Origin: Chrysomallon squamiferum | Taxonomy: Eukaryota > Animalia > Mollusca | DNA: 64,000 nt | Assembly: GCA_012295275.1 (NCBI GenBank) | Contig: CM022665.1 | Location: 27,838,001-27,902,000, forward strand | Direction of reading: 5' to 3' | In this document: one piece after another, positions 96-62,649 of the stretch | Layout of the letters: each line of letters starts with the position of its first letter | Position numbering within the stretch: the first letter of the stretch is position 1 | Position numbers and translations under genes: made by a program | Notes under the pieces: model-generated | Told to the model about the DNA's origin: nothing | Databases searched by the model: none | The model's input: only the letters and a program-made list of their open reading frames with translations

Positions 96-304
96 AAAGA
101 TGCGAATGGAAAATAGATCAAGGAATGGTTTGTGATGATCTGCCTGATGAGGAGGAAGAAAACATATCGCCTTTGTTGATGTGGTTTTACGGCTACAAAA
201 CGAACTCGTGTGTCCAGTTAGAGTATTTCGGATGCGGCGGCAACTACAACAGATTTGATAATTACACCGATTGCTTTTACACGTGTGTTGAAGATATGTT
301 TTGA
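96..304 (+). CDS. Kunitz gene 1, terminal exon only (signal exon lies upstream of the window)
   Basis: CAG acceptor at 93-95, phase 1. RCEWKIDQGMVCDDLPDEEEENISPLLMWFYGYKTNSCVQLEYFGCGGNYNRFDNYTDCFYTCVEDMF*; six Cys and the GCGGNxNRF motif. Confidence 0.9.
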
Positions 305-1330
305 GTTGTTTGTTGATTTGGTTTATTCTATTCTGTTTTATTTTATTTTACTTTACTATAATCCATAAAATGTAAACAAACTCTTTTTTTTTTTTTTTGT
401 GGGGGACTTGAAAAAAAAAAATTAAAATATCATCCTGTTTATATTATTTCTTACCTAAAGTAAAAAAAAAAAAAAAAAAAAAAAAAAAAGAAAAGTAAAA
501 ATGAAGGAAAAGAAGAACATTATCCTGCATTAATGTAACTGACCTTTTGAAAATTGCTTCATAATTTTGTTTCACTATTTTATCAAAGAAAGGAATATTT
601 AATATGATGTGCAGGATCTGACAAACATATCATACATGTTCTGTTAGATTACAGACAACGCTTTATTAAAGCTCAGCACAGGTAGAATGTTTCTACATCT
701 TTTTAGAAGCAAAGATGGAGGGTTTGGGTTTTATATTTTTGCTACGGTTTATTATCAGCTTAAAGAATAACAGTCAGTTTATAAGTTAGGTGTTCATAAA
801 AAATATGGAATAAATTATTATTTAAGGGATCTTTCAGTCTGGTCTTGCAGACTTTTCTTTCTTTTCTTTTCTTTTTTTTTTTTTTTTTTTAATTAATCTC
901 TATATTCTTTTCTTTACTACATATCGCCGTGTGAAAGCATATTTCTTTTAGCTGAGAATTTTTATCACAAAAATACAAAGATAGCAACAGTCATTAAACA
1001 GTCCTTGAATTTATTATTTATTTTTAATCGCTGACAGGCTGAAACATTTTGTATTTCATAATTCAGCAAACTTTAATGTACTATGTCTCTGAACTTGATT
1101 TGATTTTTTGTTTTGTTTTTTTCTAGCTGGAAAAATGATGCGACTGCAGTCATGAATCGGCCATTTTTCCTGGAGACAGTATTGGAAAGTGACAGCTTCC
1201 TCTATGAAATTCTCTACATCATATTAAAATTTAACTCATTAATCTGAATAAAGAACAGCAGCTTAATTTGTTTTAGTTTTTATAACTGTCTTACCTGTGG
1301 TATGTGTGTGTATATGTATATATATATAGA

Positions 1331-1398
1331 ATTATTAAGATCTGTTTAAATAATAATTTAATATATATAAAAGTATTATTTAAACAGGTCTTAATAAT
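1331..1398. repeat. 25-bp inverted repeat with 18-nt spacer
   Basis: attattaagatctgtttaaataata (1331-1355) pairs with tattatttaaacaggtcttaataat (1374-1398); one mismatch. Confidence 0.85.
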
Positions 1399-1910
1399 GT
1401 GTTTCAACGTAGTTTTGTGATTTTAACATTTACATCAATTCCTGCGAAACTGAATTATATTTATAATAAGAACTGTAAACTACCAACACATCTGTGAACT
1501 GTGTTGTATTCACTGTTGGTGGAATATTAGCCAACAGTTTTCATTATAGTGAGAATGAAAAATCAGAAAAAACAAAAAAAAATCTTTAAATCTTAAATCT
1601 GACACACACACACACACACACACACACACACACACACACGCACGCACAGTCACACACATTACGAGCTACGGTATCGCTATTATTGATAAATCGAACTCAT
1701 GGATCAGTGACGTTGTCTACCCATCTAAACCGGTGACGTCACTGAATACACGTTATTACCAGAAAATAGTAATTTCGTTGTCGACTTAAGTAGTTTCTTT
1801 ATTTTAGATGAATTAAGAAGGTGCGTGTTTTATTTGCACAATAAAGCTGTGATACCTTTGATATCCTGAACTAACTATAAGTTTAACAATTGTATTTCTT
1901 CACATTCGTG

Positions 1911-59475: not shown

Positions 59476-60181
59476 ATGAGAATTATCTTTCTTTTCCTGA
59501 TATTTGCATTTGCTGCCAAAGTCTCTGCTTTCAGAGGTAAACAATCGATGTTTTAATAAAGTTTTTAATTATTTATGTGCATATCTGGACAGGCAGACAA
59601 TTCGTTTTCACCCTGTAACAATATAATTAATATCCATATCAATACTGAACCCTTTGTTTACTGATAATAGCGATAAATGGTGGTGGTGATAGTAATAGTA
59701 GTCGTAATTGTAGTCGTAATAGTAGTAGTAGTATTGGTGGTGGTAGTGGTTGTAATAGACGTAGTAGAAGTAGCAGTAGTAGTAGCAGCAGCAGCAATAA
59801 CATTATTTTCCCCAGTGACTAATCTATTCACTTATTATTATAACTGTTATTGTAACTGTTGCTGCTGTTTCTCACAATAGATCTTTTATTTCAGACTTGC
59901 GCTGTAACGAACCGATCAATCAAGGCACAGTGTGTCCTCCGCCCACCCAGAACGAAGCGCCAGATGATGAAGGCGATGAGGATGATGATGAAGAAAACGA
60001 TGATATTAATGGTCTCATTGTGAATGATGAGGACGAGGAAGACATCGTTCTCAAGTGGTTTTACGACACCAAGCAGGACAAGTGCAAAAAGCTGAAATAT
60101 TTAGGATGTGGAGGAAACGGCAACAGGTTTCCATCAAAAGCTGAATGTATTGAATTGTGTTATCAAATCAAGATCATCTGA
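59476..60181 (+). CDS. Kunitz gene 28, very long acidic insert
   Basis: Exon 59476-59536 (MRIIFLFLIFAFAAKVSAFR) and exon 59895-60181 (LRCNEPINQGTVCPPPTQNEAPDDEGDEDDDEENDDINGLIVNDEDEEDIVLKWFY...CIELCYQIKII*). Confidence 0.9.
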
Positions 60182-61871
60182 TTAACTCGCACATTAGAGA
60201 TTAAAATGCTCATATAAAGAAAGCAATGGGTTGTTGTTGTTTTTTTTTGTTTTTTTTTAGTGTTTGTTTTTTTTATTTATTTATTATATACAAATATATA
60301 TTCATATATACATATATGTATGTGTGTGTTTCATACACATTCTTATTTTTGATAATTAATAATAATAATAATAATAATAATAATAATAATAATAATAATG
60401 ATAATAATAATAATTTAAAAAGTAAAGTAAGTCAGAGCGGATCCTTTAGAAGTTTTCAAAATATTCAGATGTATTCAGATGTGACGCGTTAGTTATCTAT
60501 AATATTAGCAGTAGTAGTGGTAGTAGTAATAGTAGTAGTAGTCGTAGTAGCAGTCGTAAAAATAGTGGAAGCAGTAGTTATAGCAGAAGAAGATTTATTG
60601 TTGTAGTAACAGTAGCACCATCAGTAGTAGTAGCCGTAGTATAAGTAGTAGTAGTAGTAGTAGTTATAGGAGTAACAAATTTAGTGGTAGTAGTGGTGGT
60701 GTAATAGTAGTTGTAGTTGTTATTGCTGTGTGGTGATGGTGATAGCCTAAAGATGAATCTGCGAACTAAGAAAAAACCACTGGCAATATAATAAGCCAGT
60801 TCTATTACTATATTGAAATATTTCCACAAGCCGCCATTATACACGAGAATCAAGACTAGTGTACATTTAACCAAGATTTTATTTTATTTTATTTTATTTT
60901 ATTCAATTTTATTTATTTATTTATTTATTTATTTATTTATTTATTTATTTTCTTACTTACTTTATTTTATTTTATTTTTATGTTTTATTTTTAAATTATC
61001 ATCATTATCACCATCATCATCATTATTATTATTATTATTATTTAACAGGGTAGGGAATGGTAAGCAATGGTAAACATAGACAAGACTTCAACGAAAAAAA
61101 AAAAAAGTAATTTCTGATATTGCGAGTTAAAATAATAATATTAAAAAATAAAATAAATAAAAACTGCCAAGGTAGCTAAATTTAGCTTTTCGTGACGTCA
61201 CAAATAAAATACGATAACAAAAGAATTCGGTATGTTTTATTCTTTTCATTTATATCTCCAAAAGCACATGTTTAATTCAGTAATATCAGGGCAGTAACAG
61301 TAAGTGGGTTTTTACATGAATATTTTATCCGTAGTATATTATTATTATTATTATTACACAATTTATATAATCTCGTTCTTCTCTATGTATTTACTTATTT
61401 ACTTGCCTGTTTTCGAAAACTAAAGGATTAATTATTGAAATGAAAGAGAAAAAAAGAGATAAAAAGAAAAGCGAGGCCTAATCGTTTTCCATCCAATACC
61501 CGTAAGAGTTTGTACAATTACGACCAATAATTATTTGACTGAAATTCCCACTTAACCCGCTTTCAGTAAATAAGACACTTTATCTAACCTTTGCAATTAT
61601 TCTCCTATTTCGTACTGTCCAGGAAATTGCTACGTATTAAGTATGAGTTGAAAATACACACACACATACTCATAGGTACGCTTTTACACGGTTACGTTTT
61701 TCACTAAGAAACTTAATTTCTGTGCCTTTGCTGTGTTAGCTCAGTGGGACACAAAGAAGGACTGACCTGTCATCTTACCAGCTGCGCGCTGTATACCAGA
61801 CTGAAGTCTTGTAATTACATTACTGGGTGTTATTATTCTTACGCAAAACTATTTAATATTTTAGGGCTGTG

Positions 61872-62649
61872 ATGAAGAAGTTGATTTTCATTTTGCTGTT
61901 TTTCTTTGTTTCCGTAGACTCCAAATATAACCATGGTAAGTAAAGTTTAGTAGTCGTTATAAACTGTTGTTGTTTCTGTTTAAAATAATCAGAAGAAAAA
62001 ATATGTAATTTATAACAGTATCTTGAATCAGTAATTTTATCACAAACAAAACGTTTTTCACTCTCTCTTCCTCTCAAACGACACAAACACACACACATAT
62101 GTATTAAGAATAATAATAGTGATTACGGTGTTGGTGATGACGATGACGATAATGATGGTGATAGAGTTAGTATATATTTTTACTATAATCCTTTTTATTT
62201 CTTTTTACTTTTTCATTTTTATTTCTTTTTTATTTTATTTTATTTTTAAATTTGTATGAATTTGAACAATGAAACTCAGCTGTATCGACATACATAACAC
62301 ACTGCACATAAATATATTTGAATTTAAATATCCATAATTTTACTTAAACAACATTAATACAACTATTTTGCCAATGTTTGCAAATATTTCTTAAAGTAAA
62401 TAGATTTTACAGATATTTCAAACATTTTCAGATCACGCGTTTTTGTTTGCAGAAAAACTTAAGTTCTGTGCCGAGCCGATAAACCTGGGTTTCTGTAATG
62501 ATACTGACTTTAGCGAAGATTTCTCTGTTACAAACTGGTTCTACGACGCCAAAAAAGATGTGTGTAAACTGTTGCCGTATTTCGGTTGTGGAGGAAACAG
62601 CAACAGATTTGTGAAAAAATCAGAGTGTGTTAAATTTTGTGTGAATTAA
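61872..62649 (+). CDS. Kunitz gene 29
   Basis: Exon 61872-61935 (MKKLIFILLFFFVSVDSKYNH) and exon 62453-62649 (KLKFCAEPINLGFCNDTDFSEDFSVTNWFY...CVKFCVN*). Confidence 0.89.

Follow-up and report, generated by a model that had tools for sequence, protein, structure and literature searches.

The window, meaning the whole 64,000-nucleotide stretch of Chrysomallon squamiferum contig CM022665.1 analysed here, contains 31 Kunitz exons between positions 96 and 62649 (30 recovered by the cysteine motif and one with Tyr in place of CysIV), 30 of them on the plus strand and one on the minus strand. A profile of leader exons located 28 leaders inside the window; that of gene 1 is expected upstream of base 1, off the window edge, and exons 8 and 24 have none, giving a total of 29 genes (28 leaders plus the one presumed off the edge). 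The counts of a sequence-only reading of this DNA (31 Kunitz exons in 29 genes) were thus borne out by the cysteine motif and the leader profile, as was its estimate of about 1.8 kb per gene over the first 48 kb (27 genes across 48.4 kb, or 1.79 kb per gene). The genes and exons are as follows.

96..304, +: gene 1 Kunitz exon; leader would precede the window; CysII-CysIII 25; P1 Asp
1911..2432, +: gene 2, complete; leader 1911-1968, Kunitz exon 2230-2432
3305..4268, +: gene 3, complete; leader 3305-3365, exon 4066-4268
6191..6889, +: gene 4, complete; leader 6191-6248, exon 6687-6889; P1 Leu then Ser
7632..8249, -: gene 5, complete; leader 8249-8189, exon 7837-7632; head-to-head with gene 6
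9078..9938, +: gene 6, complete; leader 9078-9144, exon 9739-9938; CysI-CysII 8
11031..11685, +: gene 7, complete; leader 11031-11088, exon 11498-11685; polyA hexamer absent ahead of exon 8
12105..12304, +: Kunitz exon 8, intact, leaderless; candidate alternative last exon of gene 7
13566..14035, +: gene 9; leader 13566-13623, exon 13837-14035; domain halves out of frame, break near CysII
15493..16252, +: gene 10, complete; leader 15493-15550, exon 16062-16252
17169..17785, +: gene 11; frame open; CysIV replaced by Tyr, five cysteines; acceptor missing just ahead of leader
18510..19095, +: gene 12, complete; leader 18510-18573, exon 18869-19095; loop of 22 residues, 12 D/E
20585..21204, +: gene 13, complete; leader 20585-20642, exon 21014-21204
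21939..24092, +: gene 14, complete; leader 21939-21996 (weak donor), exon 23902-24092; intron 1.9 kb; 5' half like gene 16, 3' half like gene 15
25153..25763, +: gene 15, complete; leader 25153-25210, exon 25567-25763
26625..27322, +: gene 16, complete; leader 26625-26682, exon 27132-27322; domain modelled
28369..28786, +: gene 17, complete; leader 28369-28423, exon 28590-28786; basic, net +8
29479..29961, +: gene 18, complete; leader 29479-29536, exon 29771-29961
30812..31231, +: gene 19, complete from downstream ATG; leader 30812-30863, exon 31041-31231; basic, net +7
32755..33802, +: gene 20, complete; leader 32755-32812, exon 33612-33802
34660..35319, +: gene 21, complete; leader 34660-34717, exon 35132-35319
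35925..36515, +: gene 22; stop at leader codon 7; Kunitz exon 36319-36515 intact
38243..38998, +: gene 23; leader-like exon without ATG; Kunitz exon 38808-38998 intact
39598..39788, +: Kunitz exon 24, intact, leaderless; candidate alternative last exon of gene 23
41465..41955, +: gene 25, complete; leader 41465-41522, exon 41750-41955
42689..43515, +: gene 26, complete; leader 42689-42746, exon 43325-43515
44127..44876, +: gene 27, complete; leader 44127-44184, exon 44692-44876
45637..46272, +: gene 28, complete; leader 45637-45694, exon 46082-46272
47383..48423, +: gene 29, complete; leader 47383-47440, exon 48233-48423; basic, net +7
59476..60181, +: gene 30, complete; leader 59476-59536, exon 59895-60181; loop of 40 residues, 19 D/E; net -15
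61872..62649, +: gene 31, complete; leader 61872-61935, exon 62453-62649

The spliced-ORF test returned a phase-1 intron and an open frame in all 25 leader-exon pairs tested, upholding the conserved signal exon and phase-1 intron proposed earlier. Twenty-four genes form complete six-cysteine ORFs of 80-115 aa, for which signal peptides are predicted from the hydrophobic leaders, and the net charge of the members ranges from -15 to +8, three of them being strongly basic. Lesions are confined to 4 of the 29 genes (9, 11, 22 and 23). The copies are all different, as had been claimed: amino-acid identity is at most 76% among the 18 modal-length domains, and DNA identity does not exceed approximately 80% over at least 150 nt; the array is therefore not an assembly duplicate. 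No Rfam match was found in the window, and the neighbouring minus-strand ORFs gave neither a Pfam match nor a longer homologue. PolyA hexamers are frequent in the AT-rich DNA of the window and have little weight as evidence. Two RNA runs contained 0.17 and 0.10 of the words sampled from positions 19000-28900, shares that carry no weight on transcription.

The assignment to the Kunitz family stood up to a profile check, in which each of the ten domains tested exceeded the Pfam PF00014 cut-off (35-56 bits versus 21). Six cysteines are present in 29 of the 30 in-frame domains and the GCGGNxNxF framework is retained; the fold, the cysteines and the framework motifs are common to the window domains and the canonical BPTI/Kunitz inhibitors (PF00014). 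The modelled domain of gene 16 (pLDDT 92.5) had the Kunitz domain 2knt as its best Foldseek match (TM 0.83, rmsd 1.0), and from this model the members are predicted to adopt the Kunitz fold; a single-sequence model of gene 30 (pLDDT 54) was uninformative. Solved venom and inhibitor structures align with the window profile chiefly over its C-terminal two thirds, and the ESM Atlas returned generic Kunitz clusters, below 0.9.

The reactive loop, on the other hand, has been rebuilt. The available text of a tick study gives CX8CX15CX7CX12CX3C as the canonical inhibitor pattern and CysII followed by K/R at P1 and a small residue as the trypsin-inhibitor motif (PMC3273431); neither is present in any of the 30 window domains. 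The CysI-CysII spacing is 9 in 28 of 30 (canonical 8) and the CysII-CysIII spacing is 20-49 in all 30 (canonical 15), leaving a loop of 11-40 residues after CysII that is 28% D/E, compared with 10.5% elsewhere. P1 is Pro in 20 of 30 domains and Lys or Arg in none. Given this remodelled loop with mostly Pro and no Lys/Arg at P1, standard trypsin inhibition is unlikely. Leu or Asn occupies P1 in three domains (genes 4, 14 and 31), all with lengthened loops, and would be consistent with chymotrypsin-type inhibitors, the chymotrypsin motif (F/L/N/Y at P1 and a small residue) being found among these three only in gene 4, where Ser is next.

As a background we parsed 1076 Kunitz domains from the 150 matches listed by a cluster-representative search, mostly multi-domain proteins. 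Among these matches, 956 of 1076 domains have the 8/15 spacing, 29 have a CysII-CysIII spacing of at least 20 and 14 have Pro at P1; Lys or Arg at P1 was counted in 345 of the 956 canonical domains. Among the matches listed, some large multi-Kunitz proteins that are unrelated also have terminal domains with a 9/21 spacing. The loop could be a tolerated insertion growing by GAT/GAA slippage.

The sequence-only reading had placed much of the diversity right after CysII, which holds for length (11-40 residues) and acidity but not for the rate of substitution alone: among the 18 modal-length domains the entropy of loop positions 13-18 (2.48 bits) is equalled by that of the beta-hairpin turn at 27-32 (2.50 bits). 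Positive selection in the loop, which it had listed as a sign in its favour, was not borne out. The loop has an omega of 0.74 (0.54-0.87), and the codon site models gave no significant result in either the M7-M8 (p = 0.22-0.26) or the M8a-M8 comparison (p = 0.08-0.10); M1a-M2a gave p = 0.005-0.04, and the sites that it flagged lie in the beta-turn, the fastest-changing region (omega 1.2-1.4). The framework is held by purifying selection (omega 0.09-0.46), the P1 Pro and the residues past the insert show omega of 0.28-0.33, and the loop is under relaxed constraint rather than positive selection, a result weaker than expected from an arms race. The beta-turn, being a surface hairpin, may vary from mere lack of constraint. 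These analyses were restricted to exons of modal length with six cysteines (17 and 15 out of 31), used fixed branch proportions, our own implementation and regions set after viewing the entropy profile, and are blind to selection on loop length.

A second common feature of the array is a CRE-like motif upstream of the leaders (no strand assigned).

1734..61200: CRE-like element set, perfect TGACGTCA copies and TTACGTCA-type variants
1734, 3224, 5471, 8521, 18042, 32366, 37811, 46738, 46957, 58714, 61193: perfect TGACGTCA, from a window scan
8521..8535: CRE doublet flanked by genes 5 and 6, which diverge; candidate promoter element common to both

Eleven TGACGTCA palindromes were observed against 0.55 expected for the whole window. 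All 11 lie no more than 900 bp from a leader and inside the 38% of the window that lies upstream of leaders (p = 2.4e-5, the p-values here overstating independence because the sites are related by descent). Variants of the TTACGTCA type stand upstream of most remaining leaders, and a CRE half-site precedes 27 of 28, the sole leader without one being that of gene 9. Neither a conserved TATA box nor a first-exon donor was found at constant spacing from the CRE-like site. Exons 13-28 form a contiguous 16-member clade (support 98/86), which together with the common CRE-like motif fits local duplication and co-regulation.

The top per-domain match was a 93-aa protein of Gigantopelta aegis, XP_041353071.1 (81 bits versus 67.5 for the next), automatically named kunitz-type serine protease inhibitor-like; the records examined attach no function to it. 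As the only close relative found, it suggests a peltospirid-type vent snail as host. Like the window genes, it has a signal peptide and one Kunitz domain, with Pro at P1, a long Asp-rich loop and a CysII-CysIII spacing of 26; it is 46-69% identical to the window domains over the core, although 8 residues, not 9, separate its CysI and CysII. The searches yielded a single protein of this sort, compared with 31 exons in the window, and a search with it as query matched itself alone. A metagenome scan gave 79 loci at 33-56% identity (best E 1e-13). The earlier suggestion of a lineage-specific secreted repertoire, with secretion predicted, stands insofar as the family is expanded and its framework constrained, but lineage-specificity holds only above the species level, because the Gigantopelta aegis protein falls with 25 window domains (support 95/83). 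No prior description of the array was found in the literature searched.

A parallel in organization is with the Ixodes salivary single-domain Kunitz/BPTI groups II/III, which, in the available text of the tick study, likewise have a signal exon and one Kunitz exon and combine a lineage-restricted expansion with spacing-changing indels and loss of the P1 inhibitor motif, inhibition being lost after loop indels (PMC3273431). The same text also marks the differences: tick spacings are 8/18/5 and 5-6/15/8 as opposed to 9/20-49/7 in the window, where no domain fits CX8CX18CX5 or CX5-6CX15CX8; 46 of 55 tick genes are dispersed and not in a single array; and positive selection is reported for ticks, whereas the window loop gives none (PMC3273431). 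Loss of inhibition after loop indels is similarly described, in the available part of a cestode study, for EgKU-1/4 (PMC5325619). Like the predicted products of the window, the EgKU proteins and the Kunitz proteins of snake, anemone and cone-snail venoms belong to multigene families of small secreted members with mixed functions. Unlike our reading of the window, the majority of EgKUs are functional inhibitors of trypsin or chymotrypsin (PMC5325619). Unlike with the venom and parasite families, nothing in the window suggests a venomous or parasitic host.

The interpretation that we prefer, although only tentatively, is that the tandem array of 29 genes encodes predicted secreted Kunitz mini-proteins that are switched on together through the CRE-like motif, have abandoned standard inhibition and now serve as a panel of extracellular binders. 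Following growth of the family by local duplication, a CREB/ATF-type bZIP factor acting at the CRE-like site would drive co-expression in one gland or epithelium; with the standard trypsin-type mechanism presumably lost, the charge-variable apex loop and the beta-turn would provide binding surfaces. The products would then be small stable binders, secreted towards microbes or the environment and directed at extracellular proteins; the likeliest class of partner would be proteases, bound outside the S1 pocket.

Two alternatives are in our judgement unlikely, and equally so. The genes may encode matrix proteins of a mineralised or tanned structure such as shell or scale, attaching through the acidic loop to mineral surfaces and to calcium or iron. 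The D/E content of the loops (28%) and the long Asp/Glu runs in genes 12 and 30 and in the Gigantopelta aegis protein point in that direction, as does the presence, in the available part of the source, of Kunitz proteins in peltospirid shell and sclerite proteomes (PMC11871041). The charge range of -15 to +8, with three strongly basic members, argues otherwise, and the proteome Kunitz domains, among the entries listed in that part, end at residue 150 or beyond, compared with 80-115 aa here, a weak point since unannotated small genes would escape the search database (PMC11871041).

The other of these two alternatives would have the products act in internal signalling or reproductive secretions, as channel or receptor ligands or as egg-mass or spermatophore proteins under cAMP control. 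Kunitz clusters occur in insect seminal fluid, snail albumen glands are under cAMP control, and the CRE-like sites upstream of 27 of 28 leaders agree with this, as does the rapid change of the beta-turn (omega 1.2-1.4), the surface used by channel-binding Kunitz proteins in the available text of PMC3273431. The weight of the beta-turn is reduced by its possible lack of constraint as a surface hairpin and by the non-significant M8 tests.

We regard as slightly less likely still that the members are standard-mechanism serine protease inhibitors directed at unusual (e.g. proline-specific, microbial) proteases, or inhibitors with a reactive bond shifted within the longer loop. This would account for the retained six cysteines and GCGGNxNxF framework, the conservation of the P1 Pro and the post-insert residues (omega 0.28-0.33) and the Leu or Asn at P1 in three members, but nearly all members have one additional residue ahead of CysII and at least 5 extra past it, Lys or Arg at P1 is seen in 0 of 30 domains versus 345 of 956 canonical background domains among the matches listed, and a loop range of 11-40 residues is unexpected for a rigid substrate-like loop. 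Finally, an assembly artefact or a dead pseudogene field, for which the lesions in four genes and the two leaderless exons could speak, is very improbable in view of the copies being at most approximately 80% identical, the 24 complete genes, a framework omega far under 1 and, as regards an artefact, the five runs from three studies (one possibly the window's own source) that contain 0.60-0.78 of the words sampled from positions 19000-28900.

The preferred reading of a co-switched panel of binders may be extended: the vent snail would have made of the Kunitz fold a jointly induced library of loop-display binders, about 30 in number and between -15 and +8 in charge, governed by a common CRE switch and enlarged by variants from the two candidate alternative last exons, and would secrete it for managing symbionts or dealing with iron and sulfide at its surfaces. 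This extension is doubtful.

Large single-domain Kunitz families are known mainly in venomous or parasitic animals. What is new here is an array of a known Kunitz kind with a lengthened, Pro-at-P1 loop and a common CRE-like motif. A dense 29-gene array with a rebuilt loop in a likely non-venomous vent snail would point to an unrecognised secretion, encoded by genes so small that annotation may overlook them. The common upstream motif opens the tissue and the trigger to RNA-seq testing, and the family constitutes a natural set of Kunitz scaffolds with apex inserts of 11-40 residues.

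The sequence-only reading had counted 31 Kunitz exons in 29 genes, and both numbers hold. A six-frame motif scan of the window found 30 Kunitz exons, and a tblastn search of the window with these brought the total to 31, the extra exon having Tyr in place of CysIV. A DNA profile made from 23 leader exons (short upstream exons with a predicted signal peptide) recovered 28 leaders; the leader of gene 1 is expected before the window start and exons 8 and 24 lack one, which puts the gene count at 29. When spliced by coordinates, 25 leader-exon pairs gave an open frame and the phase-1 intron originally proposed, with products of 80-115 aa and six cysteines kept in 24 of the 25. 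Several Kunitz exons carry a second phase-1 acceptor 3-21 nt off, making the precise N-termini uncertain, and an acceptor 2-9 nt 5′ of the ATG in 24 of 27 plus-strand leaders implies a non-coding first exon. The leaderless exons 8 and 24 retain their acceptors and six cysteines, with pN well below pS against their relatives, and no polyA hexamer was found between exons 7 and 8; both are likely alternative last exons (of genes 7 and 23). Four genes carry lesions, part of which may be assembly errors:

Gene 9: frame break close to CysII
Gene 11: five cysteines
Gene 22: stop inside the leader
Gene 23: leader without ATG

Other features lie beside or between the genes:

6060-6150: direct repeat of ~40 bp in three copies, immediately 5′ of the gene 4 leader
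31774-32143: local tandem duplication of ~160-200 bp (81% identity) in the spacer of genes 19/20
51650-52270: long degenerate CT-rich satellite within the 11-kb gap of the array
56150-57189, minus strand: at least two ORF segments that resemble exons of a Ser-rich gene unrelated to the array and interrupt it between genes 29 and 30; no Pfam match and no longer homologue

Of the 30 in-frame Kunitz domains, 28 have a CysI-CysII gap of 9 and two a gap of 8; the CysII-CysIII gap ranges from 20 to 49 (21 in 18 domains). The reactive-site residue P1 is Pro in 20 domains, Asp in 3, Leu and Ser in 2 each, and Ala, Thr and Asn in one each, with Lys/Arg in 0/30. The canonical cysteine pattern and P1 motifs used for comparison came from PMC3273431. 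Background was provided by 1076 six-cysteine domains parsed out of 224 retrieved proteins: 956 show the canonical 8/15 spacing, 29 a second gap of at least 20 and 14 a Pro at P1. This set is biased towards resemblance, since the search that collected it used the profile built from the window and since P0021, a 93-aa Kunitz protein of Gigantopelta aegis (XP_041353071.1), is among its members. The combination of 9 with at least 20 also occurs in 13 background domains, several of them terminal domains in large multi-Kunitz proteins, and is not unique to the window. The reactive loop of the window domains is, as read from their sequences, rebuilt. An alignment-based structure prediction for gene 16 gave a confident Kunitz fold (pLDDT 92.5, averaging 82 over residues 11-20), with 2knt as the top structural match (TM 0.83). 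Loops contain 28% D/E vs 10.5% elsewhere, in mixed codons (GAT 53, GAA 26, GAG 22, GAC 17), and domain net charge ranges from -15 to +8.

Our own codon models, fitted to 17 and 15 modal-length domains and blind to loop-length variation, placed the strongest constraint on the WFY and GCGGN blocks (omega 0.09-0.13), bearing out the conserved framework. Omega rose to 0.28-0.33 for P1 together with the distal loop and to 0.46 for the helix and N-terminal arm; it reached 0.74 (0.54-0.87) across the variable loop after CysII and 1.2-1.4 in the beta-turn (lower bound 1.02). The M1a-M2a comparison was significant (p = 0.005 and 0.037), with one or two flagged sites, all in the beta-turn; for the same 17 and 15 domains M7-M8 (p = 0.22, 0.26) and M8a-M8 (p = 0.08, 0.10) were not significant. 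Given its omega, the position of the flagged sites and the outcome of the M8 tests, the variable loop is relaxed, and positive selection there, which would have supported the sequence-only reading, was not borne out.

P0021, the sole close relative retrieved (81 bits per domain vs 67.5 for the next background domain), resembles the window proteins in its signal peptide, single Kunitz domain, Pro at P1 and Asp-rich loop. This single homologue suggests a peltospirid-type vent snail as the likely host. In a weakly resolved tree (46 rows, 61 columns; bootstrap unsettled) it clusters with 25 of the domains in the window (95/83). The same tree unites exons 13-28, which are contiguous, in one clade (98/86) and leaves genes 1-3 and the pair 4+8 in the unresolved base. 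Gene 4 (6692-6889) and exon 8 (12110-12304), which make up that pair, have a predicted N-glycosylation site in common at the same beta-turn-region position. Gene 14 (21466-24092) seems a chimera, its 5′ half resembling gene 16 and its 3′ half gene 15, with a 1.9-kb intron between them; unequal crossing-over would leave such a pattern.

An upstream motif common to the array is an addition to the sequence-only reading. The palindrome TGACGTCA, the CREB/ATF site, occurs 11 times against 0.55 expected from dinucleotide composition, and all 11 copies lie in the zone up to 900 bp 5′ of a leader, which makes up 38% of the window (binomial p = 2.4e-5, a generous value since the copies are related). 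A TGACGT half-site is present in this zone for 27 of 28 leaders, gene 9 being the exception, and one CRE-like doublet lies between the head-to-head genes 5 and 6. Clade 13-28 has the upstream consensus TTACGTCAT, which is better conserved than any other block in an alignment that has diverged elsewhere; the motif is also kept in genes 2, 4-7, 10-12 and 29-31, though their upstream DNA has no common blastn segment. This persistence amid diverged DNA suggests retention by selection. A further CRE-like site lies at 63066, 3′ of gene 31, with no leader detected before the window end. The array may extend beyond the window in both directions.

No description of such an array was found in the literature searched, mostly outside subscription journals and including the available portions of PMC5325619, PMC3721222 and PMC13425148. 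In the accessible parts of the Chrysomallon genome paper (PMC7142155), the word Kunitz is absent from the main text and the expanded-family table has two Kunitz orthogroups, each with 5 members, and one of these orthogroups could overlap the array family. For G. aegis (PMC7895826), the main text as available lacks Kunitz and the supplement holds 13 annotation rows naming it; among the rows listed for peltospirid proteomes (PMC11871041), Kunitz proteins are all longer than those of the window.

We tentatively favor, at somewhat under an even chance, a reading in which the array would be a putative co-regulated panel of small predicted-secreted binders that would no longer use the standard inhibition mechanism and would serve in a secretion at the interface with microbes or the environment. 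Putative mineral- or metal-binding matrix proteins and putative internal signalling or reproductive ligands are each unlikely, to the same degree; after them come putative standard inhibitors aimed at unusual proteases, which we consider improbable. An artefactual or dead array is highly improbable: any two copies are at most about 80% identical in DNA over at least 150 nt, and purifying selection acts on the Kunitz framework, so that the assembly artefact, when checked, was not upheld. Amino-acid identity is at most 76% among 18 modal-length domains, and 0.60-0.78 of 1002 words sampled from 19000-28900 were present in five runs from three coded studies, one of which runs may be the source of the window. 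The array is real and apparently undescribed. It belongs to a known type of gene family, and has a distinctive loop and a shared motif in its promoters.
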